This document shows, piece after piece, positions 5,769 to 59,301 of a stretch of DNA of 64,000 nt (the stretch's first letter is position 1; every line of letters starts with the position of its first letter). Both the position numbers and the translations under genes were made by a program. Origin of the DNA: Nemertoderma westbladi. Its lineage: Eukaryota; Animalia; Xenacoelomorpha. Under the pieces are notes generated by a model. That model saw nothing but the letters and a program-made list of their open reading frames with translations, did not search any database and was not told the origin of the DNA. The stretch spans positions 1-64,000 of the forward strand of contig JAUCBJ010007408.1 of the NCBI GenBank assembly GCA_032718475.1. Direction: 5' to 3'.

Positions 5769-6360
5769 TGTGACGGGATCCACCGAGGATCCCGGTTTAT
5801 CCGGTTTCTTATCTACGCGTCCCCGCCGTGTGTGTGTAAAAGAGTTCTGATATTGTTGACTGATCGTTGATAGTATAAATACAAGGGTATAATATAGAAT
5901 CAGAATAAGATATAACACAGTTGATTGTAAATCAATGATTGAAAAGTTGATTGTACCGGTAAAATGGATTAATATGGTGGTGGCAGTAGACGGAGATGGT
6001 GATAAGAGTTTCGGTACTGCCCTAACTAACTGACTTACTAAAGTGAATGAAATTGGAACAACCACCGGTAATATATTGCACTGGTTGGCCGTGTTACATT
6101 ACTCAGTGGATGCCTTCCCCCCGATTGGCTAATAACTCATTTCTCACCCTCCCATCTCTCTGGGAGTGTTTCCCCCTGCTGCTATCACTCTCTCCCTCCC
6201 GGAGGTGTAACCTCTGACCCCCGCTGTGTGTTCCCTTTGGGGCTTGTCGCCCCGTTTTATTGGGGTGACACGAGGTTGATTGGTAATCAACCTCGTGCTC
6301 CCAATATTGCTTAAAGCTAACTTTGTGTGGGCCTGGTTAGCGGAATTGAATACGCTAACA
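5769..6360 (-). repeat. 3' LTR of element 1 (592 bp)
   Basis: Direct repeat of 19148-19723 with a few substitutions and one block indel near 5930-5950. Confidence 0.95.
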
Positions 6361-7094
6361 CTCCCCCCCATGCTATCTTCCCGGTGAGAAGATAGCATCC
6401 ACCTCTAGTGCGCTACAATTCCGCTGGATCTCGATCTACTATCGAGTGTGGGGTGGAACTATTTTCCTCGGAGCCGGCTTTCCAGACCGCCCCCTATGGG
6501 TATGATATCGCTAACCTGTTTACCTGGCGTTCCGTGTCGGGCCGATCGTGCGCTCCTCTCACACAATTTTTGTTTCCACAACACTTGCGCCACTCTAACT
6601 CCACTCTACTCTCACCCTGACTCTCCTCTACTCCTCCTTACTCTCGCTCTAACCCTCGGACCTCCTTGTCCCTCACTTTGCCTCTCACTCCTCCCCCCCC
6701 CCACACTTGAATTGCACCCGCACTCTCCTCGCGCTGTTACTCAACCCCTATACCTCCTGTGCCGTCGCACTCAAGAAGTGTGATGTCGTCCCATGTCTCG
6801 TCCGCGATTCATAGTATTATAGTCTATTGGTCCCCAGTCCCAGTAGCTAATTGGAAAAAGGTTGTATGACTATGGTACTTACTTTGATTACATTTGTTTG
6901 CTAAACTAATAATGATTGCTACGTACGTACATACTAATTGCACTTTTCAATTATTTAGATTATTTGAATTTGTACTTAGGAGTTCGCACATCTCTCGTGG
7001 TGCCTTCCAGGCATACCACATCGAAGTCTTAGTTCGTTCCACCTGACTTTGGGAACCACCTCAACTCTTTCCCTCTGTCGTCCTCCTCCCTCAG

Positions 7095-9692
7095 TCATTT
7101 CCTGGTCGCTGCCGCTCCTTTGGTCTTATCTCCCTTCAGGCTCCTGACCCTCGCCGTCACCTCTTTACTAATCCCGGTCGTCGACTCCTTGGGCGCTGGT
7201 GTTATTAGCTCCCGGTATCGCTTCGCGGGTGGCCCCTCCGAGTGGCCCTGTTGTCTCCACCTGGTGGCGTCCCATAGGATCACTTTCATCGCCCTCGGCA
7301 CATGCTCCGCCAAGAAATCCCTGAACTCTCCTCTGTTCTGTGGCGTCCACCTGTCCAAATACCTCGGCGTATTTATCACCCCGGCATACGACACTGCCGT
7401 CGCCACTTCTTGGTAGGTAAATGGAAGCCTCTGTTTGATGATCTCCATGTGGGCCTCCTGATTGATGTTAAAGAAGCCCCACCGGAACTCCTGGGCCTTC
7501 ATACGTTGCCGAGTCATGGCCCCGACGTCGGCCCACTCCTCGAAGATCCTAAACTTCTCTTCGTCGTCCATCCATTCGCACTGGCGTCCATAGTGCCCAC
7601 GAAAGTTGCACTTCGAACACCGGTTGTGCAACCGTGGACACGCCCCCATCATGTGGCTCGACTCGCGGCAATAGAGACAACTATTTCCTTTCTGGAACCG
7701 GTACAAACAGCTCCTTTCCTGGTGGGTCTGTCACCCACAGTAGTCACAGCCGAGCACCAATGTCTCCCGCCCCACGTCGTCTTTCGTCCCAAGCGATCTC
7801 CGCGGTCTGTGGAGTCGCTGGTAAGCGAACTTCTGGACATTAGCGTCCCTGTCCACGTCGATCTCCTCGCCCCTCCCGGGCATCGTCTCCCCGAATACTA
7901 CCCGTGGTGCCGTTCCCGGTTGCTCGCCCAACCTGATGGTGCTCCCCGCGAAATCCATCGCCGGCTCCTCATGCACCCAGGCCCGCTTGCCGGGTCTATC
8001 CCAGAAGGCTCTCACCCCACTGGCCGTCACCACCCTCCCGCCAACCCAGTCCGTGCCCGAGTGGTCGATCCTCCCGATGGGCGGCATCTCTCCGAACTCG
8101 TCGTCATCCTCGTCCTCCTCTGGGAGTGGCTCCAACCCCGGTATCCCGGTGGACCCACTGTGTCCCTTGCCGCCTTGGCTCTCGCCCGTAACTTTCCATC
8201 CTTCCAGCTCCCCTAGCCTCCTTAGCGGCTGATCGCCCTCGGCGCCCGCTGGTATGGGCGTCGTCTGCAATCCCGATGTCGACTGTTTCGGTGATCCCAC
8301 CATCCACCCTAATTCTCGCCCTAGAGACTCCCCCGAACTCCCTGACGATGTCCAACGAAGTTCGTCTAAGGCCGCCTGTTCCTCGAAGCCGTAGCTCTGC
8401 ACCCTAGCTTCCTCCTCCCTTTCTTCTGCTTCTCTCCTCTCCTGTCTAGCGATTTCTTCCAATCGCTTCGCTTCTCGTCTATCCGCCTCTAGCTGCTCCC
8501 ACCTTTGATACGGCGTATCTACCTCCCCGTCTACCAGATGTCGGCAGTTATAATACACCGACTCGCCCTTCAGCCCCGGGTGGTCTACCAGACCCTCGAA
8601 AGCCGTCTTAAAGGCTCTTCTGTGACTTAGGGGTGATTCCGATAATAGGAATGCCGTTGGTTCCCTCTCGATAACCACGGTCATGAATAGGTTACGCAAA
8701 CCTATCATTATCCAGTCCTCTTGTAGGATATATCGCTTCTGATATACCTTTATCGCTCCTCTCCGGAATTGATACACCTCTTGTTTCCCTGGCCTCGCTC
8801 CCCACTTCAGCGAGTTCGCCAAGTCCGCTCCGTACTCCTCTCTGAACTTACCCCAGTCCATTGGTTTGTGACACACGAGCCCCATTAGCTGGCCCATCGC
8901 CACCGCTCCACAATGACCTGAGTTCTCCACTAATCCCAACCCGTCTGGTGCTGTCATAGCCATGTAGACCGTCTGCGTATCCAGAAGGTTGGGGGTGTCC
9001 GGACCGATGATTCTCTCTGCGTCGTCGCGAATCGCAGATCCCACTTTCGTCGTCGACTTCTCTCTCACTAGGGTTTGCACCGCCTTCGGCAACCGGTTCA
9101 ACTTCGGCCCGTCCTTCTTTCCATACGTCCCTAGATCGAATAGGAATATATCCCCATTTGGCGCGGCCAAATGTAGGAGTATGGTTCTGGCCGACCCCGC
9201 CGATCCTCTCCTCGAACCCTCCTCGTCTTCCACAGTCCCCTCATCGTCTAGAACCATGTATCCTCCTCTGCTGACGGACTCTACGAACCTCTTCCAATCT
9301 TTCCTCGGTGGCTCTCTCGCGTACTTCGGAATCCCGAACTTCGCTTCGTCTCCTTTCACCACGTAGTGGAAATGCTCGAAGATCGCGTTGTCCAGCGACG
9401 GCGTCCCGTAGGTCCCGACCAGCCGCTGTTCGTGCACCTCCCTGAAATGGTCCTGTAGCGATCGCGCCTTGTGACCTCTTTCCAACCGCTCGTAGTATCC
9501 CCTCGTCTTCTCTTCCGGATGCCTCTTGGTGAAATCCACCAGTATCTCCTTTCCTCCTAACTCCACCTTTCTCTTTCTGATCAGTTTCCCCGCCATTCCG
9601 AACTCTCTCACTCGCTCACCTGTAAGGTGGTGCCTTGCCAAGGCGCAATACAGATGAGTGATAAGGTTAAGATGGTCTGTACAGTTCGACAA
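7095..9692 (-). pseudogene. Accessory ORF of element 1: DEDDy (WRN/RNase D/Mut-7-like) 3'-5' exonuclease + acidic linker + 3 CCHC zinc knuckles; one in-frame TGA at 7731-7733
   Basis: ExoI YMVLDDEG; ILLHLAAPNGDIFLFDL; ExoII LPKAVQTLVREKSTTKVGSAIRDD; LLDTQ; ExoIII-like QKRYILQED. ORFs 7731-9692 and 7095-7706 are in the same frame, and the homologous codon in element 2 is AGG. Knuckles: CDYCG*QTHQERSC, CLYCRESSHMMGAC, CSKCNFRGHYGRQC. First ATG is at 9596. Confidence 0.8.
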
Positions 9693-10059
9693 TGGCCTAT
9701 TTCTTACTTAACCTCGAGTTATAGCCTAATTTTACTACTTAATTCCTAAAACTACCAAATTGTACCCTAAATTTCAATTTTGTCCATTACTTTAATTATG
9801 TTCCAGAATTTTCTTCCTATTGTTACCATAATTTGTTTAATTTCTAATTTCTTATTTTATTTTAATTTAATTCTACTACTGTGTTACTACTTATTGTTGC
9901 CGATGGATTACTCTATTTCATAATCCACATTCTGGCCTATTCTGTGGGCTTGTGCAGTACAACAGTATATGTCGCGTGGCCTATACGATTTATCCAGCTG
10001 TACTCATATGCCCCCCTCTCGCTACTTACTACTAACTAATATCTATATTATACATACCC

Positions 10060-10580
10060 TTCTACCACTAACTCTTACCAACCGGTACTACGTACCCTCT
10101 TACTAACTTCTAACTCCCACTAACTCCTACTAACCGGTACTACGTACCCTCTTACCAACCTCTAACTCCCACTAACTCCTACTAACCGGTACTACGTACC
10201 CTCTTACTAACTCTTACTCTCTCTAACTAACTAACGGTACTACGTACCCTCTTACTAACTCTTACTCTCTCTAACTAACGGTACTACGTACCCTCTTACT
10301 AACTCTTACTCTCTCTAACTAACGGTACTACATACCCTCTTACTAACTCTTACTCTCTCTAACTAACGGTACTACGTACCCTCTTACTAACTCTTACTCT
10401 CTCTAACTAACGGTACTACGTATCTTCTAACTACTAACTCTTACTAACTAACTAATGGTACTACGTACCCTCTTACTAACTCCTACTATCCGCCTAACAG
10501 TACTACGTACCTTCTAACTACTAACTCTTACTAACTAACTAATGGTACTAAGTACCCTCTTACTACTAACTAACTAACTC
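10060..10580. repeat. Tandem minisatellite (~43-54-bp unit, about 10 copies) between pol and the accessory ORF
   Basis: Repeated GGTACTACGTACCCTCTTACTAACTCTTACTCTCTCTAACTAAC. Confidence 0.9.
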
Positions 10581-10699: not shown

Positions 10700-11770
10700 T
10701 ACTCGTCTAAGATGCTCCCTCTAGTAGGCAGCACTTGCCTACAGCCCTTCTGTAGGTCTTTCTATCTTTCACTCCTATTTTGCCACCTATCCGCACTTCT
10801 ACTCGATCGGACTCTTCCGTCCTCATCGGAGTAAGTGCCCACAACCCCCATCCAATCGCCACTGGTTGTTGATGGTGGTATCGTCCGTGACGATCACCAG
10901 ATCACCCTCTTTTAACTCCCTATTCGTGTTCCTCCACTTGCTTATCCTATGGAGCGTGGGTAGATATTCCTCGACCCACCTCCTCCAGTACTCTGTGCTT
11001 ATCGCCTTGGCGACTTTCCAGCTCTGTCGGGAGTGTATATCGTCTGGGTCTACACCCCGCATGTTGATGGTCGCCGGCCTCTCCATTAGAAAGTGACTAG
11101 GCGTCAGCACATCTAATGACTCCGGGTCATCATTTTTTGGATATAGCGGTCTGCTATTAATGATACCCTCACACTTTGCTAGTACCATCCTCAGCACGTC
11201 CTCTGTTACCATGTGGGTGTTCATCAATTTCGTCATCAGACGCTTGGAACTACCCACGAGTCTCTCGACGCATCCTAGAGTATGCGGAGCATACGGCGTC
11301 CTCCTCTCCCACTTCACCTGTCGTCTTCTCATGGCTGCCCTGACTTCCTCCCCTTCCAGGATATCCAAGGCATCCGCCATCTCGTTCTCCGCCCCCACAA
11401 AGTTGGTTCCGTTGTCAGAATATATTACTGCGATCGTCCCACCTTTGCGGTCTCTGAACCTTTCTAGAGCATTAATGAATGCTGATGCGGTTGCATCTTG
11501 GGCGAGTTCTATCCCTACCGCCCGCGTGTTGTTACATACGAAGATGATGCCGTAGCGCTTCTCCGTGTGCCGCATCACCTTAATCTTTATCGGCCCGAAC
11601 ATATCCACACCGCAATGCGTAAATGGCGGGTTGTGTTGTCTCACCCTACTGACCGGTAGTGGCGCCATCTCCTGTATAGCTCACTCCTTCTTAGCTCATC
11701 GGCAGGTCTGGCACTGCCCCACTACCGCCTTTACCTTCTTTCTCAACTGTTTGACCCAAAAGGCCCTTCA
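10700..11770 (-). pseudogene. BEL integrase (zinc-finger end + DDE core + C-terminal domain), with stops
   Basis: CQTC, MAPLP..R, HCGVDMFGP, IYSDNGTNFVG, VER, INSRPL, LTPSHFL, W..EYL..L. In-frame TGAs at ~11769, 11697 and 11682; frameshift near 10850. Confidence 0.92.
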
Positions 11771-13189
11771 TATCTCCGTGAGGGTCCGGTTGGTGCCCCT
11801 GTGCAATATCGACTTATGGGAGTCCCAGATGATCTGATGGACTATCGGTGATCCATTGGGGATGATGATGGGCTTTGGCGGAATGATGATACTGTTGTTG
11901 TTCGACACTCTAGAGTTCATCACTAAGATTCCATCATCGTTTAGTTGTGGCGACAGCGCGATCAGCTTTCTGTCCCGTCGGAGATGCTGTTGTTTGCCGA
12001 CGCGTTCCACCTCGTCACCGTAATTCTTCCTCTGTTCGTAGCGGATGACGGCCTTGGCTGCCCTTTCCAGATCGACGGTTATTTTACCTTTTGTATCTCT
12101 ACCGATTCCCCTAAGGAAGTCCCCGAAGGCTCTCCAGTACGCCACTAACTTCTTGGTCTTGTACCAACTTGAGCTGTAGCTAAGGAGTTTGTCCGTCGCG
12201 TTATCGCACAGTTCTTCCGGTTTCGGTTGCACGTCCCTTATCTCCCTCACCATCTCGCTGTATATTTCCTCACCTTCTGAATCTCCTCCCTCTTCATCTA
12301 ACGCTACTTGATCTGTGCCCGGGTCCACCTTTCTCATCGGCGGCCAGGCTGTCTTATCGTTCAGGAATTGCGGCCCATGCTGCCACAATACTTCCTTCTT
12401 CAAGAAAGTGTGGCATGCCACGCCCCTCGATAACAAGTCCGCTGGGTTCTCGTCCGTTGGGCAGTAGTGCCACCTTTCTAACTCTGTGGTCGCCCTTATT
12501 TCGTCCACCCTATTTGCGACGAATATAGGGTATCTCGTCCTTTCGTTATGTAGCCAGCCAAGCACTACCATGGAGTCCGTCCAATAGTGAGTCTCCACTA
12601 TGTTGGGAATGGCATCCACTAAGTAGGCTGTGGCCCTAACTCCTAATCTCGCAGCTGTCAACTCGAGTTTCAGAACTGATGCTGAATCTGGTGACGTTGA
12701 CTTCGCTTTGCTGAATGCGAGTCTGGGCTTATGAACCCCCTCTCGTTGTACTAAGTAGAGTGCCGCTCCGTATGCCTCTAATGACGCATCGGAGAACATG
12801 TGCAGATCCAGATTCGTCATGTCCCCATCCGGGAAATATACACATGGCATGCTGTATGTTCCCATCTGCTCTAAACTCTCTGTCCACTTGCTCCATTGCT
12901 TTCTGAGATCTTCCGGGACCTCTGTGTCCCAATCTTCCTTCAGCTTGTATACTTTCTTAAGTATCTGCTTCCCCGTGACTAGTAATGGGGATGCTAGGCC
13001 TAGGGGATCGTATATCCTCGCTATGTACGACACATAGCCCCTCTTTGTGTGGATATCTGCGCCCTCCTGACTCAACTGGTATTTCAACTCGTCTGTCTCT
13101 CGGTTCCACACGATCCCTAGTGCCTTCTGTTGGGACTCCACTCTCTTGTTCGCCATGTCCTGTCCCTTGGCTGTCGTGGGATTATCCAT
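11768..13189 (-). pseudogene. BEL RT connection / RNase H region
   Basis: KALGIVWN, IYDPLG, LHMFSDASLEAYGA, KLELTAA, YWTDSMVVLGW, FVANRV, NPADLLSRG, WQHGPQFL; frameshifted from the upstream ORF at ~13185. Confidence 0.93.
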
Positions 13190-16100
13190 GGTCGACTCTG
13201 GCCTCCTGTCCTCTATGGCCTTTCATGAACTCCTGCGAGCTGGATTGGAACTTGGTTAGGTTGAACCCGGATCCTTTTAGGATGTCGCGAACCTCGCGCC
13301 CCGTATCCAGTAGTTCCTTAACCGTATTTCCAGACTCCATCCCGTCGTCTACATAGAAGCCGCGTCGAATCATATCGACGGCTTTGACGCTACATTTATT
13401 CTCCTTTCCCTCTACTGTGTCTCTTACGGCCACAGTCGTCGTAAATGAAGACGACTTGGCTCCCATATTCTGTACTACCATCTTATACATCGGTATGGTC
13501 GACGGCTCCTCGTCGCCATCGTACCATAGGAAGCGCTGACTGTCGCTATCCTCTTCCGTTACACGGACTTGGTTGAACATGCCTTCGATGTCGCAGGTGA
13601 AAGCGTGTTTACCATTCCTGAATCTGAGTAGGACCTCGATCCCTGAGTTGTAGATGTTGGGACCCTCCAGCAGATAATCGTTTAGGCATTTGCCGTTGGT
13701 TTTAGCCGATGCGTCAACTACCATCCGCAGTTTACCTTTCTTCGGGTCTAGAGCCACGTGGAGTGGCAGGTAATAGGTCCTGTCCGTGTTTGGTTCGTCG
13801 ACCGGTAACTCCACGGCCCATCCTTTCTCGACATACTTCCTGATTGTCTTATGAATGTACTCATTCTTCTCGGGGCTCCATTTTAGCGTCTGCTTCAACT
13901 TACGAAGCCTCGTGAGTACCATTCCTTTATTGTCGGGTAGCGGTAGCTTCGGTAGCTTCCATACCATCCCTATGGTATACCGCCCCTCATCGCATGTCAT
14001 CGATTCCTTTACACTTTGTAAGGCCTGCTTGTCTTCTACCGAGGTTCCGACCCCGGTCTCTTTTAATCCCTCAAAATCCTGTCTGAGCAGTCTCCTGAGC
14101 TGCTCCTCTGCTCCCTCATCTCCCATTTTTCGCATAGTTCCCGCGAACATGCATCCTGATGTCTCCGACATCATAAATGGTATTTTGCTCCTGATTGGGC
14201 CGCTCAGCGTCCACCCGAATGGTGTTAAGATCGCCACCGGGTCACACTGCCTGTCTTCGCCGAAGACCGTTTGCATTCTCTCGTGGGCCGTCGGGCAGTC
14301 CATTCCTACTATAATGGATACCTTCCTAACGTCCACCTCTGGGATTGAGAAATCGATACTGTCCAGGAATCTATATTGTTCGACCTCGATGTTGGTTGGC
14401 CGCCTGGCGTTGATATTTATCGACTCTATCACCTGGATGGGGTCGATGGTCGCCCCATAGTCGCATCCCGGTGCTATTGCTGCTATTGCGCACCATCCGG
14501 TCCTCATCTCCAGGACCTCATCTTTGCTGGAGATGGTTGTTACCGCCATTCTACTTGGCCTCGTTCTCAATCCTATCTCTTCGGCCACCCAATCCTCAAC
14601 TAAGGTGAAGGCTGCACCACTATCGACCAGCATCAGTGTGGTTACTGATCGATTGCCTTCCCCGATTATCCTTACTGGTACTACCCCTAATAGTACCGTT
14701 CCTCTCTTCCTCGCCACTACGGTGCTTGTTGCCATCGTCTGACCTTTACTTTGACCGAACTTAATTGGCGTTTCCTTGCATTGGTTGGCTCTATGTCCGC
14801 TCATCACACATCGTGAACAGATTTCATTCCTTCTCGCGTATTCTACCTGATCTTCCCTGGGTAGCGCTTGCCAGTACCTGCAGTTCATGGTCTTATGAAG
14901 TGCATTTGTATGTAGTTGGCATTTGCTCTTTGGGTTGTAGCCATCCTTATAAAGTGCGTTGCATATCGCACTTATATTTGTACCAAAGTCCCTACTATTC
15001 TTATTGTTTGGGTTCGGCCTACTGGGCGTGCTGGGGTTATGTTTATTTGTGTTGTTATTTTTCCCCTGTCCGCTCCATGATGTGGTCTTACCCCCGGCTA
15101 CTTGTGGACTGGCAGTCCCCTGCGTTGCTGCGTACGGCAGTGACTGTCTGAGCTTTGGCAATGCGTTCGACGCGTTGTGCTCTGGTTTCGGCCTGTGGTA
15201 ATCGGTCTTTGGTCCCTTTCCCAGGCTATCCTCGCTATAGACTGGGTCCGTTATTAGTTCAGCTTCATAGTTTAAGAAGCTCGACATCTCTTCTAAACCC
15301 GGTTCCGCACCCTTCCTATCTCGAGTGGAGAAAGCGATTTCTCTCCACTTATTGCGCAGCCAAATCGGTAGTGCCTGCGCTATCGTAGTGATGTTGTTAG
15401 ACGCGTTGAGTTCGTATGGCGCATCCAGCGTCTTTAGTACGATTAGCGCCTTCTCGACTTTGTTAGCGAATGTCTTTATGCTAACGGGGTTATCCTGTAG
15501 GCCACCCGATGTTATACCTCTCAGGGTTTGCCGGATGATCTTGGCCGGGTGCCCGTACTCCCTGTCTAGTGCCCGCCATGCTGTCGTGAAGCCGCCCTCG
15601 ATGCCCTGGTATTGCCTCACGATGTCGTATGCTGGGCCTCCTGTATACACTTGTAGATACTTTAGGCACTCCGCCTGTGTCAAATTCTTTGTTAATATTT
15701 CATTACTATACATGCGCCGAAACTGTAGGTATTCTTCCGGCCTACTTCCATCGAATTTGAATGGTTCCACGGGTGGTAACTCGATCCTGGTCTTTAATGC
15801 ATCGATTAACGTGGCCATTCCCATCGCTTGCGCTTCCAATGGGTTCGACGGATGCTGTATAGATTCTCCTGTTGGGTGCGGTCCCTTCGTCCTTATTGCT
15901 GCTTTCCTTTGGCTTGGATATATCATTGGGGGTAGCGGCCCCCTCCATATTTCGGTATCGCACGATCTATTCTCGTCCAAGGGGTTCGGTATTCTTGTTC
16001 CTATTGGGGTATATTGTTGATATTGTGATGGGGGAATGTCACCCTGTCCCCCCCCCCCCCCCACCGGTATGTTTGGTACTGGGGTTGATGTTAATATATT

Positions 16101-16853
16101 GGGGCCCATGCACCTATCCGCAATAATTCTCCCCTCCCCTGGGTATATGTTATGTCCTTGCATGCTGTAGTCATACTGCTGTGCTGGTACCGGTATAGGC
16201 CTATCCACTTCTGGCCTACCTGCCGGTATGTACTCCGCGACTTCCGGGTTTAATCCCGTCGTTCGCGCTATCCTATCGCCTACATTATCTCTCCCAGCAT
16301 GGCCTATGGTATGTGCAGTAAGGCCTACAGTATGTCCTGCAGTCTGTATGTGTCGCTCGGGATCAAAGTTTAACCTTCTCGAATAATCCTCCCCGCGACT
16401 ACCGTACTCTCGATCGGTAGGTATATCCCGTCGGGAAGTTTCTCTTCGACCCCCTCTACTGCTCTCGTCCTCATACCGGTACATCCCGTACCCCTCTCTC
16501 TGTGCGTAATACGCCTCGTCAGGTCGCGTTTCCCCGGGACGACGGCAATCTCCCAGAGCCCGACCCCACCGACTCTCCGTCTCCATCTCTACTACCGACG
16601 GCTCACTATCCGTCCTCGCCCTCCTGTCGTTCGCGACGACACTTCTTCTACTCTCTTCCCCTCTTCTCTCTGTAGTGCAGTATCCCCGGTCATGAGATCT
16701 CTCGTCGACCTCCCGGTTAAACTCCACTGTTCTTCTTCCCTCTTCTGATTGGGCTTGGCGTCTCGTCGCTCGCCCTCTCGCGACGTCAACCTGTCTCTCT
16801 CTGCTCGATCGCACGCCGCTGGGGATACTCGTAACCCCCCTACTATTCTCCAT
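13182..16853 (-). CDS. BEL gag core + zinc knuckles + aspartic protease + reverse transcriptase (1223-aa open segment)
   Basis: Gag FDGSRPEEY..F; CSRCVMSGHRANQC; protease LVDSGAAFTLV; RT YYLPLH, KLRMVVDAS, CLNDYLLEGP, DIEGMFNQV, FYVDD. Confidence 0.93.
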   Translation of the reverse strand: MENSRGVTSIPSGVRSSRERQVDVARGRATRRQAQSEEGRRTVEFNREVDERSHDRGYCTTERRGEESRRSVVANDRRARTDSEPSVVEMETESRWGRALGDCRRPGETRPDEAYYAQREGYGMYRYEDESSRGGRRETSRRDIPTDREYGSRGEDYSRRLNFDPERHIQTAGHTVGLTAHTIGHAGRDNVGDRIARTTGLNPEVAEYIPAGRPEVDRPIPVPAQQYDYSMQGHNIYPGEGRIIADRCMGPNILTSTPVPNIPVGGGGGQGDIPPSQYQQYTPIGTRIPNPLDENRSCDTEIWRGPLPPMIYPSQRKAAIRTKGPHPTGESIQHPSNPLEAQAMGMATLIDALKTRIELPPVEPFKFDGSRPEEYLQFRRMYSNEILTKNLTQAECLKYLQVYTGGPAYDIVRQYQGIEGGFTTAWRALDREYGHPAKIIRQTLRGITSGGLQDNPVSIKTFANKVEKALIVLKTLDAPYELNASNNITTIAQALPIWLRNKWREIAFSTRDRKGAEPGLEEMSSFLNYEAELITDPVYSEDSLGKGPKTDYHRPKPEHNASNALPKLRQSLPYAATQGTASPQVAGGKTTSWSGQGKNNNTNKHNPSTPSRPNPNNKNSRDFGTNISAICNALYKDGYNPKSKCQLHTNALHKTMNCRYWQALPREDQVEYARRNEICSRCVMSGHRANQCKETPIKFGQSKGQTMATSTVVARKRGTVLLGVVPVRIIGEGNRSVTTLMLVDSGAAFTLVEDWVAEEIGLRTRPSRMAVTTISSKDEVLEMRTGWCAIAAIAPGCDYGATIDPIQVIESININARRPTNIEVEQYRFLDSIDFSIPEVDVRKVSIIVGMDCPTAHERMQTVFGEDRQCDPVAILTPFGWTLSGPIRSKIPFMMSETSGCMFAGTMRKMGDEGAEEQLRRLLRQDFEGLKETGVGTSVEDKQALQSVKESMTCDEGRYTIGMVWKLPKLPLPDNKGMVLTRLRKLKQTLKWSPEKNEYIHKTIRKYVEKGWAVELPVDEPNTDRTYYLPLHVALDPKKGKLRMVVDASAKTNGKCLNDYLLEGPNIYNSGIEVLLRFRNGKHAFTCDIEGMFNQVRVTEEDSDSQRFLWYDGDEEPSTIPMYKMVVQNMGAKSSSFTTTVAVRDTVEGKENKCSVKAVDMIRRGFYVDDGMESGNTVKELLDTGREVRDILKGSGFNLTKFQSSSQEFMKGHRGQEARVDHG

Positions 16854-19093
16854 CGCCGGGTGCTGCGGTTCACCTAATTCACCCCGCGCACTATCCGCCG
16901 ACGCCTGTGGGACACTCTCTGCCCCCCCCCCCCCCCCCGCTCGCCGCTAATCCCTCATTGTGGGGCTCCTGTAGCCCCCCCCCCCACTCGCCACCTATTA
17001 CTTCACTATCTCTCACTTCACCTCCAAACCCCTCTCTAGTCGACACACTAACCCTACCGCGGCTGGGTCTATTCACCCCCGCCTCTCTCTCTGCTACTGT
17101 GTGGCCTACCAGGCCTTCCACTTCCTGCCTACTAACTGCGTGGCCTACCAGGCCCCCATCGGGTTGACTCAACCCCGCCACCTCCTGCCTACTAACTACG
17201 TGGCCTACCAGGCCCTCACTGGGTTGACTCAACCCCGCCACTTCCTGCCTACTAACTACGTGGCCTACCAGGCCCTCGTTTACCGGGCTATGCACGTCCG
17301 CCACGCTCATATTAATAGCACCACTGCCAGTATTGTCTGTTAAATCAATCAAATCCTCCAAATCAATTAAATTATTTTGCACGCCTAAATTAGAAACGGG
17401 GTTATTTTGTTCGTTCGAAATAAGATTATTTGAATTATTTTGCGCATTTATATTATTTGAATTATTTTGTAAATTTAGATTTAAATTATTTGAATTAGGA
17501 TTATTCGGATTATTTAAATTAGTATTATTATTTGAATTATTTGTATTTAAATTTAAATTACTACTACTAGGTAAAATATTTCCTGCAATAAAGGTTTGGT
17601 TAGAATTATCCAATACGGTACTATTAATATTAACGTCCTCTACTCTATTATTATTATTACCCCCCCCCCCCCCCCCCCGCCCGTACGGTCACACCAGTCT
17701 TGGGTCTGTCGTGCGGTCCCTGTAAGTGGGGCATTAATAAACGTTTTCCTAACTCCCGGCTCCTCGTAAATACTCGAGCCAGCCTCGCTCTCTGATAGCC
17801 CCATCTGCGCCAGTTCCAGTCGGCGCTTCTGTTTGGCTTGATATTGAATAAGCCCCCTTAGGCGGGCATGCAAATCATCCCGCACACGCTTCCCCGTTGC
17901 CTCTCTCTCCAGATCCTCCCGCGCACTCTGATCGGCTAATTCCGCCTCTCTCGCAACCCTCTTGAGTCGTCTCGCCTCGCGCTCCCTTCGCTCACCTTCC
18001 GCCCTCGCCTCGCGCTCTTTACGTTCACTCTGCTCTCTCGCACGTTCACTCTGCTCTCTCGCCTCACGCTCTTCTCGTCTATTCTGCTCTCTCGCCTCAC
18101 TCGCCGCCTCGCGCTCTTCTTGCTCCTTCCTTTCTATCCTCCCTATTTCCTCGCACTCCTTAAAGCTTCTTGCGACCTTCTCGGCCCTCTCTCTGTTCTC
18201 TCTAACCAGTTCTTTCTCCTTCTCTAATAACGCACTCCCTTCCTCTAACTGTCTCTCTAATTCTCTCTGGTCTAGCGCCGCCAGATCGAGCTGGCACGCC
18301 AGATCTATTTCCCTCACCCGTCTTTCTTTTGCGGAGGATGTAGCAGACTTATCGGCCGCGACGGACTCCCGTCGTCTTCCCGTCCTACTAACTTTCCCCC
18401 GCCTCCCGGAATTTTCTCCGACCGACGAGACCGAATCCTCGGGGTTAACCTCGGATTCGCTCTCCTGCGGTCTCCTCCAACCCACCAATTTTCTCCCCGG
18501 CCATCGACTAAGTATGGCCCTACGTACACTACGCTAGGTTCCATACCCTTACATTCCCATAGTTCAAACAGTTCACTGGCAACCCCTCTCGCTCTCTCGT
18601 CGGCTAGTTCTGCCTGCCCAAAGCGCACTAAGTAATCAAAATGTTTGTTCGACTCACCTAGCCGCTTCTTTAACTTCACCTCGTCTATCTTCGCCCCTCC
18701 TTTGGCTTCTCTTAGCTGCTTCCGGGTCGCGGCGTAGGCTCATTGGAGCCGGTTGCTGACCCCGACGTCCTCATCGCCGACGTCTCCTCTATCCCTCCGT
18801 GTCCGGCGTCGTACCGGCGGCCCCACCGTCGCCGTTCCGGTGGGCCGTCCGTCGCCCTCGGCCTGTGGCTGGCCGGCGACTTCGGCACGTCGACCGCCGC
18901 TCTGTGTCGACTCGTCTCTCCCTTCTCTCGACTCGTCTTCTCGTTGTAGATGGCCCCCCTCCTCTTGGATTGCCGGAGTGCCTGTGGTCGACGAACCCGG
19001 CGTCGTGGGTCGGTACCGTCGCGTCGCGGCCTCGCGGATCGTTAGGTCGCCGTCCGGGGTCCGCGGCGGTGTCGTTTCTCCTCCTCGATTCAT
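16854..19093 (-). pseudogene. Long N-terminal gag extension (coiled-coil, Asn-rich block, 60-bp repeats), interrupted
   Basis: ORF pieces 18740-19093, 18314-18679, 17640-18488 and 16891-17613; the first three are collinear with element 2 ORFs 55328-56420. Breaks are at an in-frame TGA (18740), a frameshift near 18500 and poly-C runs (17660-17678, ~16920-16985). Confidence 0.75.
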
Positions 19094-19147
19094 CTTTTCT
19101 CTGGCTGACTAGTCAGTTTCTAGCGGGCAACAGTTGGCTCTTATCAC

Positions 19148-19723
19148 TGTGACGGGATCCACCGAGGATCCCGGTTTATCCGGTTTCTTATCTACGCGTC
19201 CCCGCCGTGTGTGTGTAAAAGAGTTCTGATATTGTTGACTGATCGTTGATAGTATAAATACAAGGGTATAATATAGAATCAGAATAAGATATAACACAGT
19301 TGATTGTAAAGTGAAGTGTACCGGTAAAATGGATTAATATGGTGGTGGCAGTAGACGGAGATGGTGATAAGAGTTTTGGTACTGCTCTAACTAACTGACT
19401 TACTAAAGTGAATGAAATTGGAACAACCACCGGTAATATATTGCACTGGTTGGCCGTGTTACATTACTCAGTGGATGCCTTCCCCCATTGGCTAATAACT
19501 AATTTCTCACCCTCCCATCTCTCTGGGAGTGTTTCCCCCTGCTGCTATCACTCTCTCCCTCCCGGAGGTGTAACCTCTGACCCCCACTGTGTGTTCCCTT
19601 TGGGGCTTGTCGCCCCGTTTTATTGGGGTGACACGAGGTTGATTGGTAATCAACCTCGTGCTCCCAATATTGCTTAAAGCTAACTTTGTGTGGGCCTGGT
19701 TAGCGGAATTGAATACGCTAACA
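19148..19723 (-). repeat. 5' LTR of element 1 (576 bp)
   Basis: Direct repeat of 5769-6360; TG...CA ends; followed by TSD TACAG. Confidence 0.95.
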
Positions 19724-33182: not shown

Positions 33183-33701
33183 CTAAATCATAGGGTAATA
33201 AATATGAAATTTGCTAGGTGAACACATTAAAGTACATTTACCGGTATGAAAGCAGCAAATGACTACGGTATTATTTATTCTTATTTTGCAATTATTAAAA
33301 ATTTCAGGTTCATATATAACTTGAAGTTGCACATTATCAAAGACAACATAAAACCCGGTATTGTTTATCAATAACCTATAGACTACAGACTTAATACTAC
33401 AAATATAAGTACATAAATTAACAGATTTTAAAATCAAATTAATACTAGTTTTATCAAATATATGCTTTTTTACTTTTTGGAAATTATACTTACTGCCTAA
33501 TAATGTAATACGACCATTTTTAAATATTAATAATGTGGCACCAAATATCTTATATATAAACTGATTTGGTTTGAGTATGTGTTTACCAGATAATTGATTT
33601 TTTAATTCTTTAAAATTAATCGCTAACACTTGCTGGCAACTTATATTTTTATTTACTATTTGATAATTCATCATCAATACCATCGTCTTTTGGTTCTTCA
33701 T
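33183..33701 (-). CDS. TATA-binding-protein (TBP)-fold protein
   Basis: Two TBP half-repeats: INFKEL...TLLIFKNGRITLLGSK and YEPEIF...ICCFHTGKCTLM (cf. TBP LIF.SGK...TG and YEPELF). Overlaps the pPolB stop. Confidence 0.7.
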   Translation of the reverse strand: MKNQKTMVLMMNYQIVNKNISCQQVLAINFKELKNQLSGKHILKPNQFIYKIFGATLLIFKNGRITLLGSKYNFQKVKKHIFDKTSINLILKSVNLCTYICSIKSVVYRLLINNTGFYVVFDNVQLQVIYEPEIFNNCKIRINNTVVICCFHTGKCTLMCSPSKFHIYYPMI

Positions 33702-36700
33702 AAATTGGTATATTTGATATTTTTATAGGTTTTTTGAGGTTTGTTTTATAGTGCCCCCAAGGAAGCGAATGATTTTTATTAACCCAATAAAGTTTATCGT
33801 CAAAGCTACTGAGTGCAAATTTATTTTGCTTTAAGGTATAAATACGATGTAATTTAGATTGAAATCTGTGTATGTTTTTTTTTATTTCTTCATTTGAGTT
33901 ATAGGCTTTTAAATATTCTTCATGTGTAATATTCGTTTCCACAACAGCTCTTGTAATACCTTTTGCTCTACGAATATTTTTGTTATTCCATTCCAAAATT
34001 GAATATAATTTTGGTCTTAAAAATACTGCTTGTTTAATTTCACGTGAGGCTAGTTCGTCTTTACAGTAATAGAGTCTGGATTTATTTTTATCGCTGTAGA
34101 GAGGGTGATCCTTAGGGTAATTGGAAGTATCTAAAATATTATTTTTAATTAATGCTTTTAAAAAATTATTCTGCGATGTATTATAATAACAACCTATCAA
34201 AGAGTCAGTGTCTGATGCAGCAATTTCAATACGGCAGTTTAATTCTTTCTCAATAGGTAGCAATTTATTGTAAAACAGCTCATACATATCCAATTTAGCC
34301 AAGTCCAACACAGCGCTACCAATAAATATAGGCTTATCGAGAGTTACAGAGTCTTTCACTAATAAATGTCCCGATAATGTATTATTGTATATTATAAATT
34401 GTTCATGATTAATACGATTTACCAATTGATCGCATTTATCGTTGCTATTTGCGATACGAAAGTTACATCGATCTCTTATCTTTTCTATTGTTTTACCAAA
34501 CAGAGAATTATTGAGCAATTTCGCGACAGCAGTTTCAATGTAACTTTTTGCTAGGCGCCTTTGATTAATATTAAAATCTATGTAATTTTTAAATACAAAT
34601 TCTTGTTGAAAAGAATATAATTTATGGAGCTTAGTAACAATTAATCCATGTTTTATATAAAATTTTAACAGTTTCAAATGTAAATGATAAAACTCTTTAT
34701 CAAATTGCGTCAGCAAGAGTTTTGGTGTAGACATCCTATATTTACGGGAGGTACCTCTTTGTATCGATAAATTATTAAATTGTTCCCGCATATAAGGCGA
34801 AAGCATTGTTTCATTTATACTTAAATGCTCAGGGGCTAACGGTAATTGTAATGTTTGATCGTGAATAGCCTTGGGATAATTTAAATCACATATTAAAAAA
34901 TATCCAGTAGATCCATCAATGTCTAAATTTACCAAGTACTCGATTAGTTTTTCTGGAATTGCATTCTCTAAGTGTTTAATACTTACTTCTTTGAATTGCG
35001 AGGTGGGTAGTTTTTTACTTAAATTCCCAGAATATAAAGAGTTGAAATCAATATTAAAAATATGGCATTCTTCCTTAGTAGAATCATATGTGCTTGTTCC
35101 GGGTATATTTGATTCTATATAATGCTTTCGACAAAATGAAACACCACCCCTAATTGATTTTTCAAAATCTCTATATGTCTGATAATCCTTTATTAATTCT
35201 ATTTTACATTTATTATATTTTAGTGCACAATCATAGGTAAATGACGCAATACTACAGTAAAAAACCACTTCTAAATCGTAATTTTGTTTACAAATATTCC
35301 TAAAATTCTCAAATATATCAGCAAGCAAACAAACATCGAGTTTTAAATAGGCTAAAAGATAATCTTTGAGATTCACACAGTCAAATTCTACCCATGATAA
35401 TTCTGCAAACCTATAATCTTCAATTGCGCATGTTTTTTGTGTTAAGTTACTAAAAAAATTATTTATAGACGGCAAACCAGTATCATTAAATTTATTAATA
35501 TCTGTCAAGTACTCGTATGGAAATACACCTTTCCGTTTAATTGTTGAGTTATTCAAGTTTGGATAAAAATATTTCATTTCTTGTAGAGTAATAGGTAAAA
35601 TTGAGCTTATATCATGACTCGCTACATCCTTTGTTGAACACTCAACTAAATTAGTTAAAGAAAAGCTTAAAAATTGATATGTGTCCAAGAAACGTAACTC
35701 AATTTTTTTTAGAAGTGTTTTTAATTGGGATAAATGCACTCATTGAAATATATCGTTCTGTATTTCTCGGTATAACCTTTATATCCCAATCTGTGTATTT
35801 CTTATCTCTAAATCCGGTTTGTAATAAATATACAATGTATATCGTAGTTGTTGGAATTATGCCCGCAAAGTACATACAGGTATCGTTTCAATGATAAACT
35901 TCGGTTACAGCTATTACATGCTGCTGCAATATATTTACCTGTGATATGTGAATGATGTCTGTTTTTCCCCACATTATTATTTAAAGTAACATTACAATAG
36001 AAACAGAATTTTGCTTGTTGAAAATTTACAAAATCAATATTAGTAAATGACATAGTTTTATGTGTATATATGTCTGACCAACAACATAATTCAGTTAAAT
36101 CAGTATATAATGAATCTAAGAAATCTTGAATACAATTATTATTATTTGATTTTACGAATGTTTTCAAATGACATTTTGGTGGGTCAATTAATTCAGTATT
36201 GGGAACAATTAAATAACTCACAGCACACGGTATATGTTCCTGTATAAATTGATTGTTAACTGAAGGTTGTAAGATACATTCTATATCAAAGTAGGTGACA
36301 AACAATGGGGATAAGGTTCTATCTAAATTTGTAAAACTAATGTGTGTTCTTTTTTTTTTATTAGGTAGTTTCTCGCGTTGACTTCTTCCTTGGTAGCAGA
36401 CGAGACGGTGTCGATGAAGAACTTCCGCTCGAAAAAAATGAGTCAAACACCTTTCACAAAATTGCCTACCTCGAGTATGAAGAGCTCTCGTATTCAGCAA
36501 TCGATTCAAGTTAGTTATGCAAACATAATGATTCTGTTTAGGTACATTGTTATTTTTTACTACAAGTAATATATTTAATAACTGTTTATCAGGTGTAATT
36601 TTACTAAACGGCGGTTGTCTTAATATAGATACAGGGGAGTGTTTGTTATCATTATTCCAACATAGTAAATTAATTATATATTTTGAATTTTGTTTTTCAA

Positions 36701-40016: not shown

Positions 40017-40244
40017 TAAATGGCAGATTCCCATGTATAAAAGGCAGACCTCCAGTCCTGCCATGTATAAAAGGCAGACCCCCATGTATAAAAGGCAGAC
40101 CCCCCCAATGTATAAAAGGCTATCGCTAATTTCAACTTCCAGCCAAATACATCGAAAAACTAACCTTAAATAATCGTCTCCAGCAAAAATAAGTGATGTG
40201 AGTGAGTGTGTGTGTGACTGAAATGAAAACTCAAAACATTTAAT

Positions 40245-42915: not shown

Positions 42916-43533
42916 TGCGTCTACTAGAGGTAGCACAAACAGAGGTTAGATGTGAGGAGACTTAGAGATTTCGTCTTCTTTTGGCTCAACTTTGCTCTAA
43001 ACCCCCTACCCATAGCCAAAGATTCAGGGTTCTGTGAGACTTCTCACTGGCTCTTAATCTAAAAACTGTGCCGGTAAAAAAAATTCGGTCAAACTGGCCA
43101 TGAGTCTAAAATACTCACTTTTTAATCGCAAACTACTTCCTAGAATAATAATGCAGTCAAGAATTAGTTAAAAATAGAGTAGACACAACTATTGGAACAA
43201 GGCCATTTATATTTGTCAATAAATATTGGAAGGCTCGCGAGCCTTCCATCCCCCTTCTTGTCCCCCCAATTGTTGGTCCCATCCGACCACATCCTAGAAT
43301 CCGTCCACTGGAGAATCAATTTTCCTAAAAAATTCGAAATCCAAATTGATTATCTAAAAATTTTTAAAATTTGTCTCGCTTGTGGGTTCCAAGTGGAATT
43401 CCATTCCTTTGTACACACAAAACCGCTCCTATGTGATACATAAGGGTACTACCCTCCATGTTCACATATAAAGACAATGGAATTCCACCGCTGTCTTTAA
43501 CCTACAGTGTACAGGAATATGGTAGGCACATCA

Positions 43534-43725
43534 CTACTTACGTGGTTTACGTGGAGATTTATAATCTCCTGTCTCGTTTCGAGTCTCCTCAAGGAGTACG
43601 AGATGTTGTATAGGTCTGTCTACAGTACGTCCGTCAATTGTCTGTACAGTCACAGTCCGTATTACACCACCTGATGTCAGGTGTGTGGTCAAAATGACTC
43701 CAGTCAACCAAAACCGTCTTTTCAA
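43534..43725 (-). pseudogene. BEL integrase C-terminal tail (core missing)
   Basis: FWLTGVI...GGVIRTVTVQT..G....RPIQHLVLLE. Confidence 0.7.
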
Positions 43726-44269
43726 GTTGGGCTGTGCTAAAAAGCCCAGCTAATTTGCAGCAAGCGTCAGTCCATGATTGTGTAAGGTTAACTATCCGGT
43801 CGACGTAAGTGTTAGTGATGTCACTAGGTAAGTAAATATGTATAGTGTGGATACTTGTTTGGACATGGTAGGCCCGTGGGCCTTCCGGTAAGTGTCTCCG
43901 TTTGTGCAATGGGCTTGTCTGGGTCCACAAGTACTTTCTTGGTCTCCAATGTCTTACCTTTATCATCAGAACTCGATGGGTTGACCTGTATTAGTGGTTT
44001 TAACTCTACGGCATTGGCACATTTCGTTGGACTTGTAGGTCTCCTAACGTTAGTCACACGTTTAGTCGTAGGTTGTAAGTCAGGTATTTTCCTTGAGCGT
44101 AGTGTGATACCTGTATTTACATTTGGATGGGCACGACCCATATTTGTAATACCTGTAGTCACACCATTGTCATGTTGACTCAAGCATGTCAAGGTAGGTA
44201 AGTTGGTAATACATTACTGGTCAATACTATGCCGCTCCAATGGGGTAATTGCGGTGTTATAGTATACTT

Positions 44270-44760: not shown

Positions 44761-44767
44761 GGATATT

Positions 44768-48240: not shown

Positions 48241-48241
48241 G

Positions 48242-51762: not shown

Positions 51763-51849
51763 GGTTTGACATCAGTAGAATCGTGAGTCCTCACCAAAAA
51801 TCATTACCAAATCAACCTGGATTTTAGACATTATGGGTTTTCTGGGACA

Positions 51850-54714: not shown

Positions 54715-55241
54715 TGTGAGTGGATTCAATTCTGCCCACCACCCCATAAAGTTAGGAAGTGGCACCTTTTAGCAATATTGGGGATACACACAAAGGGAGG
54801 TCAGAGGTTAAACCTCCGGGAGAGGAAAGTGACAGCAGCGGGGGGGGGGGGGGGGGGGGAATCACTCCCACAGAGGTGGGAGCCGAGAATTAGGTTATTG
54901 GCCAATCAGAGCCAAAGTAACTGCATCCGCTAAGTAATAAGGCCAAAAGTACAGTTGGTAATCAATATATTACCGGTCAGTATCCATATCATAATTCAGT
55001 TATCTCAGTCACCCAGGGCAGTACGGTGACACTTTAACACCGTCACCGCCATCATCAATATATTACCGTACAGCATTTACCGGTAACCTTGCTTCAGTTA
55101 TCTCATGCTATCACTCTATATTATATATTATATTACCGAACTCTATTAACAATATTGGAACAACAATAACCAATTGTTTTCTTAACCGTGCGGCGACGCG
55201 TAAATAAACCAAACCGGTCGGGATCCCCTGATCCCGTCACA
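54715..55241 (+). repeat. 5' LTR of element 2 (has an internal U3 deletion near 54787)
   Basis: Direct repeat of 58746-59301, lacking ~58783-58849. Confidence 0.9.
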
Positions 55242-55327
55242 GTGTTAAAGTCGCCTACTGACCCAGTAAAGTTACCGAGTACCTAGATAACTGTGACTGC
55301 CACCCACCAGAAAGAAGGAGAGACAAG

Positions 55328-57390
55328 ATGAGCGAAACCCGAAACCTCGAGGGAGAGACGACACCGCCGCGGACCCCGGATGATACGAACGAAACGATCC
55401 GCGAGGCCGCGACGCGACGGTATCGACCCGCAATGCCGGACTCGCCGGAGAGGAACGATCTGGTAGCCCAGGCAGAGGGCGGCCGTCTACCAGGGCAAGA
55501 GGAAGAGTCGACGCGCGACGGCGCACGACGTACCGATGTCGCCGGCCAGCCACAGGCCGAGGGCGATGGAAGGCCCACCGGAACGGCGACAGTGGGGCCG
55601 CTGGTACGACGCCGAACCAGGAGGGAAGGAGGAGAGATCGGCGATGAGGACATCAGAACCAGCGACCGGCTCCGACGAGCCTACAATGCAACCAAGAAGC
55701 AACTCAAGGAGGCTAGAGAGGGTGTAAAGATAGACCAGGGAAGTTAAACCAGCGACTAGGTGAGTCGAACAAACACTTTAAATACCTAGTTCGCTTCAAG
55801 CAGGGAGAACTAGCCAGTGAGAGAGCGAGGAGGGTCGCCACCGAACTATTTGAACTGTGGCGATCCGGGATTATGGAGCCCCAAGTTGTGTACATAGGGC
55901 CGTATTTAGTGGATGCTAGGGGAATTAAGTTAGTGGGTTGGGCAGACCCGCACGAGGGCGAATCCGAGATTAACCCCAAGGATTCGGTCTCGTCGGTTAG
56001 CGAGGACCCCAGAAAGCGGGGGAAAGTTAGTAGGACGGAGAGGCGACGGGAGTCCGTCGTGACCGACAAGTCCGCTACATCCTCCGCAAAAGTAAGAAGG
56101 GTGTTAGAAATAGATCTGGCGTGCCAGTTGGATATGGTGGCGCTAGACCAAAAGGAGTTGGAGAGGCAGTTGAAAGAGGGAACTGCGTTGTTTGAAAGAG
56201 AGAGAGAACTGGCGAGAGAGAACAAAGAGAGGGCTGAGAGGGTCGCGAGAAACTTTAGAGAGTGTGAGGAGATAGAAATAAGGGAAGGAAAAGAGCGAGG
56301 GGTGAGAGAGGAGAGTGAGCGAAAAGAGCGTGAGGCGAGAGAGGCGAGAGAAGCGGAATTGGCCGAGCAGAGTTTGCGAGAGGATAGGGAGAGAGAGAGA
56401 ACGGGAAAGCGTGTGCGGGATGATATGCACTGGACATCAGGGAGTTCGGGCGAGTCTCTAGGGCGAGAATTGGGGTGGACGGTAGGGTCACCGAAACAGT
56501 CGACATCGGGATTGTTGACGACGCCCATACCGGCAGGCACTGAGGGCGATTTCGCGCAGAGGAGGCCAGGGGAACTGGAAGGATGGAGAGTCACGGGCAA
56601 GAGCCAAGGTGGGAACGGACACAGTGGATCCACCGGGATACCGGGATTGGAGCCACTCCCAGAGGAGGACGAGGATGACGACGAATTCGGAGAGATGCCG
56701 CCCATCGGGAGAATCGGCCACTCGGACACGGACTGGGTTGGCAGGAGGGTGGTAACGGCCAGCGGGGCGAGAGCCTTCTGGGATAGACCCAGCAAGCGGG
56801 CCTGGGTGCATGAGGAGCCGGCGATGGATTTCGCGGAGAGCACCATCAGGTTGGGCGAGCAACAGGGAACGGCACCATGGGTAGTATTCGGAGAGACGAT
56901 GCCTGGGCGGGGCGAGGAGATAGACGTGGACAGGGACGCTAATGTCCAGAAGTTCGCTTACCAGCGACTCCATAGACCGAAGAGATCGCTTGGGACGAAA
57001 GACGACCTGGGGCGGGAGGCATTGGTACTTGGCTGCGATTACTGCGGGAGGCAGACTCACCAGGAAAGGAGCTGCTTGTACCGATTCCAAAAGGGGACTA
57101 GCTGTCTCTACTGCTGCGAGTCGAGTCATAGGATGGGGGCGTGTCCACGGTTGCACAACCGGTGTTCTAAGTGCAACTTCCGGGGGCACTACGGACGCCA
57201 GTGCGACTGGATGGATGATGAGGAGAAGTTTAGGATCTTCGAGGAGTGGGCCGATGTCGGTGCCATGACCCTGCAGCGGATGAAGGCCCAGGAATTCCGG
57301 TAGGGCTTCTTTAATATCAACCAGGAGGCCCACCTGGAAATCATTAAACGGAGACTTCCGTTTACTTATCAGGAGGTGTCAACGGCGGAC
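55328..57390 (+). pseudogene. Chimeric gag N-terminus fused in frame to accessory-ORF C-terminus (3 CCHC knuckles)
   Basis: 55328-56420 matches element 1 19093-17880; from ~56428 (HWTSGSSGES) it matches element 1 8355-7400. Confidence 0.85.
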
Positions 57391-57391
57391 T

Positions 57392-58745: not shown

Positions 58746-59301
58746 GTTGGGAAGTGGCACCTTTTAGCAATATTGGGGATACGAGGCTAATCCCCAATTA
58801 ACCTCGTATCACACACCCAATAAACGGGGACAACAAACCCCGAAGGGCCACACAAAGGGAGGTCAGAGGTTAAACCTCTGGGAGAGGAAAGTGACAGCAG
58901 CGGGGGGGGGGGGGGGGGGAAACACTCCCACAGAGGTGGGAGCCGAGAATTAGGTTTTTGGCCAATCAGAGCCAAAGTAACTGCATCCGCTAAGTAATAA
59001 GGCCACAAGTACAGTAGGTAATCAATATATTACCGGTCAGTATCCATATCATAATTCAGTTATCTCAATCACTCAGGGCAGTACGGTGACACTTTAACAC
59101 CGTCACCGCCGCCATCAATATATTACCGTACAACATTTACCGGTAACCTTGCTTCAGTTATCTCATGCTATCACTCTATATTATATATTATATTACCGAA
59201 CTCTATTAACAATATTGGAACAACAATAACCAACTGTTTTCTTAACCGTGCGGCGACGCGTAAATAAACCAAACTGGTCGGGATCCCCTGATCCCGTCAC
59301 A
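58746..59301 (+). repeat. 3' LTR of element 2, missing its first ~36 bp
   Basis: Matches the 5' LTR from GTT.GGAAGTGGCAC to GATCCCGTCACA. Confidence 0.9.

Follow-up and report, generated by a model that had tools for sequence, protein, structure and literature searches.

Some LTR retrotransposons prime minus-strand DNA with their own RNA: nematode Cer7 is reported to have a self-encoded primer, and for Tf1 cleavage of the RNA by RNase H is said to have been shown by Levin in 1996. The Tf1 primer-binding site (PBS) is copied into single-stranded DNA at the cDNA ends, as described in the available part of PMC11042837. Self-priming has also been predicted from sequence, by a match of at least 10 bp lying 0-5 bp past the LTR, and with this criterion it was predicted for the TAR lineage of plant Ty1/copia elements (Houba, Osr-1), as far as the accessible text of PMC6317226 goes. 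In the literature that we examined, self-priming is confined to Gypsy elements, where it was shown, and Copia elements, where it was predicted. The ICTV describes BEL/Pao elements as 4.2-10 kb long, with an 18-nt PBS for tRNA-Arg or tRNA-Gly (PMC8742986), and the main text of two BEL surveys (PMC3118150, PMC6238403), in the parts accessible, does not contain the words "PBS", "primer" or "tRNA". Neither self-priming in BEL/Pao nor a splice-built primer was found in the literature searched, which comprised full texts with few subscription papers.

Here we describe two LTR retrotransposons, elements 1 and 2, in a 64,000-nt stretch of Nemertoderma westbladi DNA (contig JAUCBJ010007408.1), which we call the window. 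A previous interpretation made from the letters alone (the sequence-only reading) had proposed that both elements lack a tRNA-type PBS and are primed in a Tf1-like manner by their own RNA.

Results

Elements 1 and 2 are BEL/Pao LTR retrotransposons with 5-bp target-site duplications (Table 1). Element 1, which is 13,955 nt long and lies on the minus strand, has the Pao-type order of Gag, protease (PR), reverse transcriptase (RT), RNase H (RH) and integrase (IN); the Pfam domains DUF1759, Asp_protease_2, Peptidase_A17 and DUF5641 scored above the cut-off and rve below it. The LTRs of both elements have TG...CA ends and are flanked by the 5-bp duplications (in element 1 CTGTA, with copies at 5768-5764 and 19728-19724), and a purine tract was seen in element 1 only. 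The coding region of element 1 is broken by frameshifts and stops, ORF3 having a single in-frame stop at about 7731, and a 44-nt tandem array of about 9-11 copies lies between integrase and ORF3 (window 10068-10565). By its proteins element 1 is filed as BEL/Pao, and it departs from the ICTV description at the PBS: the 18-nt site for a host tRNA 3' end is lacking, TGG being absent after both 5' LTRs. We also considered membership in the Tf1/sushi group (Ty3/gypsy chromoviruses) and rejected it, as the domains are those of BEL/Pao and the frames scanned gave no chromodomain match; any likeness to Tf1 is one of mechanism only.

Judged by alignment, element 2, on the plus strand, is an internally deleted sister family of element 1. 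The LTRs of the two are 64-66% identical in local alignment, the first ORF region 76% and the ORF3 tail 89%. Element 2 has lost gag-pol and the exonuclease domain and is therefore non-autonomous. At 57390-58745 an insertion has taken the place of the last part of ORF3, the purine tract and the beginning of the 3' LTR; by eye, and with a weak DUF6451 match, it resembles a non-LTR retrotransposon tail, and a piece related to it occupies positions 1-164 of the window.

Table 1. Coordinates of the features of elements 1 and 2 in the window, and lengths of the PBS-LTR matches in relatives
Feature	Position	Strand	Remarks
Element 1, 5' LTR	19148..19723	-	TGT...ACA, 576 nt; 571/576 aligned bases identical to 3' LTR
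Element 1, stretch with CCAAT box (19492) and TATA-like CAATATATTACCGGT (19443)	19429..19492	-	kept in element 2; putative promoter
Element 1, stretch from Inr-like motif to 10-mer	19374..19415	-	holds GCAGTAC (19385-19379); predicted pairing with leader
Element 1, candidate self-primer 3' end	19364..19373	-	exact PBS complement, 226 nt from LTR end
Element 1, stretch immediately 3' of 10-mer	19340..19363	-	predicted pairing with U5 (~19190-19206)
Element 1, U5 hairpin, 8 bp	19153..19173	-	
Element 1, PBS position	19138..19147	-	first 10 nt past LTR, no TGG
Element 1, long N-terminal coding stretch before gag	16891..19092	-	interrupted by frameshifts and stops
Element 1, frame with Gag (DUF1759), protease and RT (YVDD)	13182..16946	-	
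Element 1, RT end and RNase H	11768..13222	-	Pfam Peptidase_A17, E 2e-39; different frame
Element 1, integrase core and DUF5641 piece	10823..11680	-	
Element 1, ORF3	7095..9707	-	probable DEDDy/WRN-like 3'-5' exonuclease domain, then Cys-His motifs
Element 1, 3' LTR	5769..6360	-	purine tract before, target duplication CTGTA after
Element 2, 5' LTR	54715..55241	+	TGTGA...TCACA; preceded by target duplication CTAAA
Element 2, candidate self-primer 3' end	55031..55040	+	211 nt from LTR end
Element 2, U5 hairpin, 7 bp	55219..55236	+	
Element 2, PBS position	55242..55251	+	predicted pairing runs on for 9-13 nt, with two bulges
Element 2, internal part	55252..57386	+	first ORF fused to ORF3 tail
Element 2, 3' LTR	58749..59301	+	start lost beside unrelated insertion; followed by CTAAA
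Relatives, contiguous matches (4/12)			L007 10 nt, L011 12, L029 11, L045 11
Relatives, intron-crossing matches (8/12)			L022 11 nt, L025 11, L027 12, L035 12, L057 and L060 15, L079 12, L084 10

As the sequence-only reading had noted, the 10 nt past the 5' LTR of element 1 (GTGATAAGAG) do not start with TGG and match, as an exact reverse complement, 10 nt inside the LTR; the equivalent 10-mer of element 2 (GTGTTAAAGT) is likewise the exact reverse complement of a stretch that occupies the same place in the LTR alignment (Table 1). Both PBS 10-mers begin at the first base past the LTR-terminal CA, the LTR ends having been fixed by the second LTR copies and the target-site duplications. When each 5' LTR was subjected to 20,000 dinucleotide shuffles, a 10-nt match at offset 0 appeared in a fraction of 0.0005 (element 1) and 0.0004 (element 2) of them, and a match at offsets 0-5 in 0.0016 and 0.0011, respectively. 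Ten of the 12,778 internal 10-mers of element 1 have a complement in the LTR, the PBS being one of these, and among the 2,140 internal 10-mers of element 2 the PBS is alone in this respect. Moreover, the 10-bp match is the longest Watson-Crick helix in each leader region of about 360 nt. Both elements have the PBS match of at least 10 nt, 0-5 nt from the LTR end, by which self-priming is predicted from sequence. In the 64-kb window ARAGORN detected 0 tRNAs and Rfam gave 0 matches.

The claim that both partners had changed together was borne out, as 4 of the 10 pairs differ on both sides between elements 1 and 2, with positions 8-10 also readable as a one-base shift. Because element 2 is a sister family of element 1, this covariation represents one contrast, not many. 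The U5 hairpins that had been reported for both LTRs are present, the previous coordinates for element 2 being one base off.

No close relatives were found, the nearest proteins being 25-41% identical. A search with the LTR-end pattern gave 0 metagenome stretches; its sole viral match, L001, was rejected as a chance match in a phage-like contig, and no locus was obtained in 3 of 3 protein-based viral scans. The relatives compared here are 93 BEL loci, namely the best 80 of 577 metagenome stretches from a profile scan and 13 loci (L082-L094) situated inside bacterial genome bins, for which host contamination is the simplest reading. Pao-type domains were present in all relatives scored. Where the 5' LTR ends was settled from the divergence of the two LTR copies in 11 metagenome loci out of 80 and in 1 of 8 longer genome-bin loci, and the resulting 12 fixed-end loci represent 11 families, a sample with no tRNA-primed BEL element as a control.

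TGG was found in the first 8 bases past the LTR in 0 of the 12 fixed-end relatives, and all 12 have a match of 10-15 nt to their own LTR, starting 0-4 nt past it (Table 1). The complementarity seen in the window is thereby extended to other families, and the proposal of Tf1-like self-priming in a BEL lineage is well supported by this comparison. The PBS letters vary between families, yet each fits its own LTR: in a cross-test the LTRs matched their own PBS over 9-15 nt and the PBSs of other elements over at most 9 nt, the duplicate pair L057/L060 excepted. The helix ends 0-4 nt from the LTR end in 14 of 14 fixed-end cases. Contiguous matches at unfixed LTR ends (L003, L037, L054, L059) were left out of the evidence. 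A blind scan for contiguous 10-11-mers gave 12 events compared to 9 and 11 in the controls; for plain inverted repeats, the reverse strand is not an independent control. The first blind scan, run with no type filters, gave 78 matches against a background of 53.

In 8 of the 12 fixed-end relatives the matching stretch becomes continuous only when a GT-AG intron within the LTR is removed. These introns are 76-338 nt long. Their first bases are GTAAG, GTACG or GTGAG, and the pyrimidine-rich YAG at their other end lies 6-7 nt before the primer 3' end; L022 was counted after the donor list had been widened, the first donor pattern having missed it. The blind scan for such joins covered those 62 of the 93 loci in which sufficient upstream DNA was available, and we relied on its strict version. 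With strict donors, 14 joins were detected in 13 of the 62 loci and 0 on the reverse strand, and 238 kb of pol gave 2 joins (one event in a duplicated family). With wide donors, adopted after L022, there were 24 joins in 21 of the 62 loci versus 4 and 4 in the controls. L018, which is 90% identical to L025 and L034 and was used solely via alignment to them, has an LTR from which precisely the 168-nt intron is absent, and its PBS still matches. Whether L018 is of DNA or RNA origin, the junction is used. Removal of the intron raised the predicted probability of the helix from 0.00-0.05 to 0.59-0.99 in 6 of 7 cases, the exception being L035, where the spliced fold gave just 0.05.

The 3' LTR of L035 has a TATATAA box 36 nt before the donor (near 6620-6740); from this position we infer a first exon of about 5-8 nt, and the spliced primer would therefore form the extreme 5' terminus of the RNA. 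The two LTRs of L045 (1-345 and 6700-7110) are 88% alike and differ in form: the 5' LTR has an acceptor-like site directly before the last five bases of the primer, with the donor beyond the contig start, and in the 3' LTR the 11-mer is uninterrupted. Elements 1 and 2 are of the intron-free form. An intron that would lengthen their match was considered and rejected, as the 10-mer contains no acceptor and the GCAG close to it has only 6-8 pyrimidines in 15.

A CCAAT box and a TATA-like motif are kept in both LTRs, and an Inr-like TCA[GT]T[CT] precedes the 10-mer by about 42 and 35 nt in elements 1 and 2, respectively. The transcription start therefore probably lies upstream of GCAGTAC. The earlier assignment of GCAGTAC as the start site is not supported, as the promoter-like motifs indicate a position some 35-40 nt upstream of the 10-mer. 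GCAGTA is predicted to pair with the leader behind the PBS. The pairing of the stretch upstream of the 10-mer with the leader was equally stable in a fraction of 0.029 (element 1) and 0.006 (element 2) of 2,000 shuffles, and a second helix, formed by the bases past the 10-mer with U5, in 0.034 and 0.007 of shuffles, respectively. When element 1 was folded, all 12 folds predicted the 10-bp helix, with P of 0.87 or more. The six folds of element 2 that included the upstream stretch had 8 of the 10 pairs at P of at least 0.85. The mean probability of the element 2 helix was at most 0.05 in 3 of 12 folds, all among the six that omitted the upstream stretch; these three start at or just before the 10-mer and run 80-180 nt into the internal part. 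Among the duplexes of the Tf1 "pretzel", the primer:PBS helix and the primer-3' helix with U5 are predicted in both elements, and a candidate for the third one (leader with the LTR downstream of the primer) is found in element 2 only.

ORF3 of element 1 is probably a DEDDy-like (WRN-like) 3'-5' exonuclease, as predicted by a protein language model: its look-alikes scored 0.92-0.93, the likeness to WRN-like exonucleases reaching 0.93 with 177 shared features, and 30 of 30 look-alikes belonged to the DNA_pol_A_exo1 set, a family present on 11-38% of cluster members. The exonuclease motifs were identified by eye. ORF3 had no Pfam match up to E 1, no PDB relative and no homolog by word search, and phmmer against 1.84 billion proteins returned 3 short repeated matches and no real homolog; the single-sequence structure model reached a pLDDT of 31.6. 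In the 12 self-matching relatives the longest frame between pol and the end of the 3' LTR is 142 aa, and 0 of 12 have room for an ORF3. The suggestion that the exonuclease might process the primer is thus not supported, and we predict from these sequences that ORF3 is an accessory nuclease dispensable for self-priming.

A third, decayed BEL/Pao element occupies window positions 40100-51800 on the minus strand (Peptidase_A17 at 45610-46083, RT to 47192). It carries a homolog of the ORF3 of element 1 (E ~1e-6) with C-terminal Cys-His motifs, in which two of the exonuclease motifs, D-x-E and RDD, are kept, and no recognisable LTR was found for it. Its RT shares only about 33% identity with that of element 1, and for this reason the exonuclease-bearing BEL elements look old in the host. 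A 12-nt repeat array lies upstream of its integrase end (44190-44785, minus strand). The segment 20331-40022, with inverted ends that are 97% alike, an integrase and a weak A32/AAA ATPase match, is presumably a Polinton/Maverick-like element; inside it, an ORF at 33183-33722 encodes a TATA-binding-protein domain (Pfam TBP, E 7e-9).

In the RT tree (40 rows) element 1 fell into a 31-row group with support of 97/91, to which all the self-matching loci present in this tree also belong. The RNase H tree (46 rows) placed it between the self-matching loci and insect elements, outside the starred 40-row group of the relatives. Element 1 forms a long branch, being 28-39% identical to the relatives, and both trees are midpoint-drawn from row subsets and include neither a non-BEL outgroup nor named clade references. 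On these alignments, common ancestry of the self-priming trait across element 1 and its relatives is likely.

Discussion

Elements 1 and 2 likely self-prime, because they combine the absence of a tRNA-type site with an exact 10-nt match to their own LTR. We estimate at roughly 0.72 the probability that these members of a BEL/Pao lineage prime minus-strand DNA with their own RNA in a Tf1-like manner. In the mechanism that we propose, the 5' piece of the RNA, beginning about 35-40 nt upstream of the 10-mer, would pair with the PBS and the leader. The folded RNA would then be cut where the helix ends on its 3' side, with the RNase H of the element as the probable nuclease, as in Tf1; the acidic residues D145, E187, D216 and D262 of the RNase H are present and conserved in the alignment. 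If the cut falls 3' of ...CAC, it would free a 3'-OH facing the LTR-terminal CA, so that priming would occur at the LTR edge. Plus-strand synthesis would copy the primer into the PBS and keep the partners matched, and this proposed copying could be why they change together. In the intron-bearing families the primer would be complete only after host splicing of the 5' end, and the intron would be kept if the 3' LTR copy, which serves as the template after strand transfer, is unspliced, and lost when it is spliced.

The primer could also be element RNA of another origin, either the 3' LTR copy or, in trans, a small RNA or a second (spliced) transcript; a 3'-5' exonuclease, encoded by the host or by ORF3, would trim its 3' end back to the helix, and no internal cut would be needed. 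The presence of the 10-mer in both LTRs would permit this, a start 35-40 nt upstream leaves sequence for strand transfer, and the WRN-like character of ORF3 (0.93), together with the D-x-E and RDD motifs retained in the third BEL element, would suit trimming. However, none of the 12 self-matching relatives has an ORF of more than 142 aa where the exonuclease would be encoded, the helix is predicted to form readily in cis, and intron retention would be explained most simply by a cap-proximal spliced primer and an unspliced 3' template. We consider this origin of the primer unlikely. A purely structural role of the LTR-leader helix (in packaging, dimerisation or translation control), with a host tRNA fragment or another host RNA serving as the primer, seems to us less probable still. 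It would account for the extension of the pairing past the 10-mer into the leader, and tRNA-half priming in which TGG is absent is known from Copia lineages (accessible parts of PMC6317226 and PMC10886601). Yet the helix ends within 4 nt of the LTR end in every fixed-end case, where a primer must sit, and a host RNA would fit neither PBS letters that differ by family and match each family's own LTR nor splice junctions within that LTR, which it would not track.

Finally, the match might be due to chance or to an assembly or repeat artefact. Ten bases are short, and contiguous 10-11-mers in the blind scans hardly exceeded the controls (12 vs 9 and 11). Such an origin is nevertheless hard to believe, given a shuffle probability near 0.0005 for both elements at a position set in advance, the homologous location with different letters, and the agreement of 12 of 12 relatives.

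We also lean, with less assurance than for the self-priming of the two elements, towards a wider interpretation. A large aquatic-animal BEL/Pao lineage would have given up priming by tRNA, and the host spliceosome would build the primer in many families of that lineage; the unspliced 3' LTR would pass the intron on, and exact intron loss (L018 versus L025) would give an always-ready primer. Elements 1 and 2 would then be a far-diverged, intron-free branch with a primer of about 45-50 nt and a captured exonuclease. If true, self-priming in BEL/Pao puts the mechanism in all three LTR superfamilies, and it bears on whether hairpin priming preceded tRNA priming, a question raised in the available part of PMC3601003. 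It could also free BEL elements from control by tRNA fragments, annotation tools that seek a tRNA site would miss such elements, and a splice-assembled primer would make host splicing a switch of retrotransposition.

Compared to the Belpaoviridae as described by the ICTV (PMC8742986), element 1 shares the LTRs, the PR-RT-RH-IN order, the Pao-type domains and the purine tract, but it has no TGG-type PBS, measures 13,955 nt and carries the exonuclease-like ORF3. An exonuclease-like accessory ORF past pol is a feature that element 1 shares with the bdelloid Juno and Vesta, where a role of the DEDDy ORF3 in RNA 3'-end processing was suggested (PMC5408684, in the part available). Juno and Vesta belong to other LTR lineages, no sequence link between their ORF3 and that of element 1 was found, and the accessible text of PMC5408684 does not contain "priming" or "PBS". 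The TAR lineage resembles the present elements in its predicted self-priming, but it is a plant lineage of the Copia superfamily, and an intron-built primer is not described for it in the accessible text of PMC6317226.

The closest likeness is to Tf1/Tf2/Tj1, Tf1/sushi and Tcn1, which like elements 1 and 2 have no tRNA site, a PBS directed at RNA derived from their own LTR, and flanking helices (available parts of PMC4600332, PMC10085805 and PMC6317226). The intron-split primer of the BEL relatives is undescribed for Tf1/sushi in those same parts. The Tf1/sushi elements are Ty3/gypsy chromoviruses, whereas elements 1 and 2 are BEL/Pao. Unlike in Tf1, where the primer is at the very 5' end of the RNA, the 10-mer here is probably preceded by 35-40 nt, and the three-duplex "pretzel" of Tf1 is only partly evident in elements 1 and 2.
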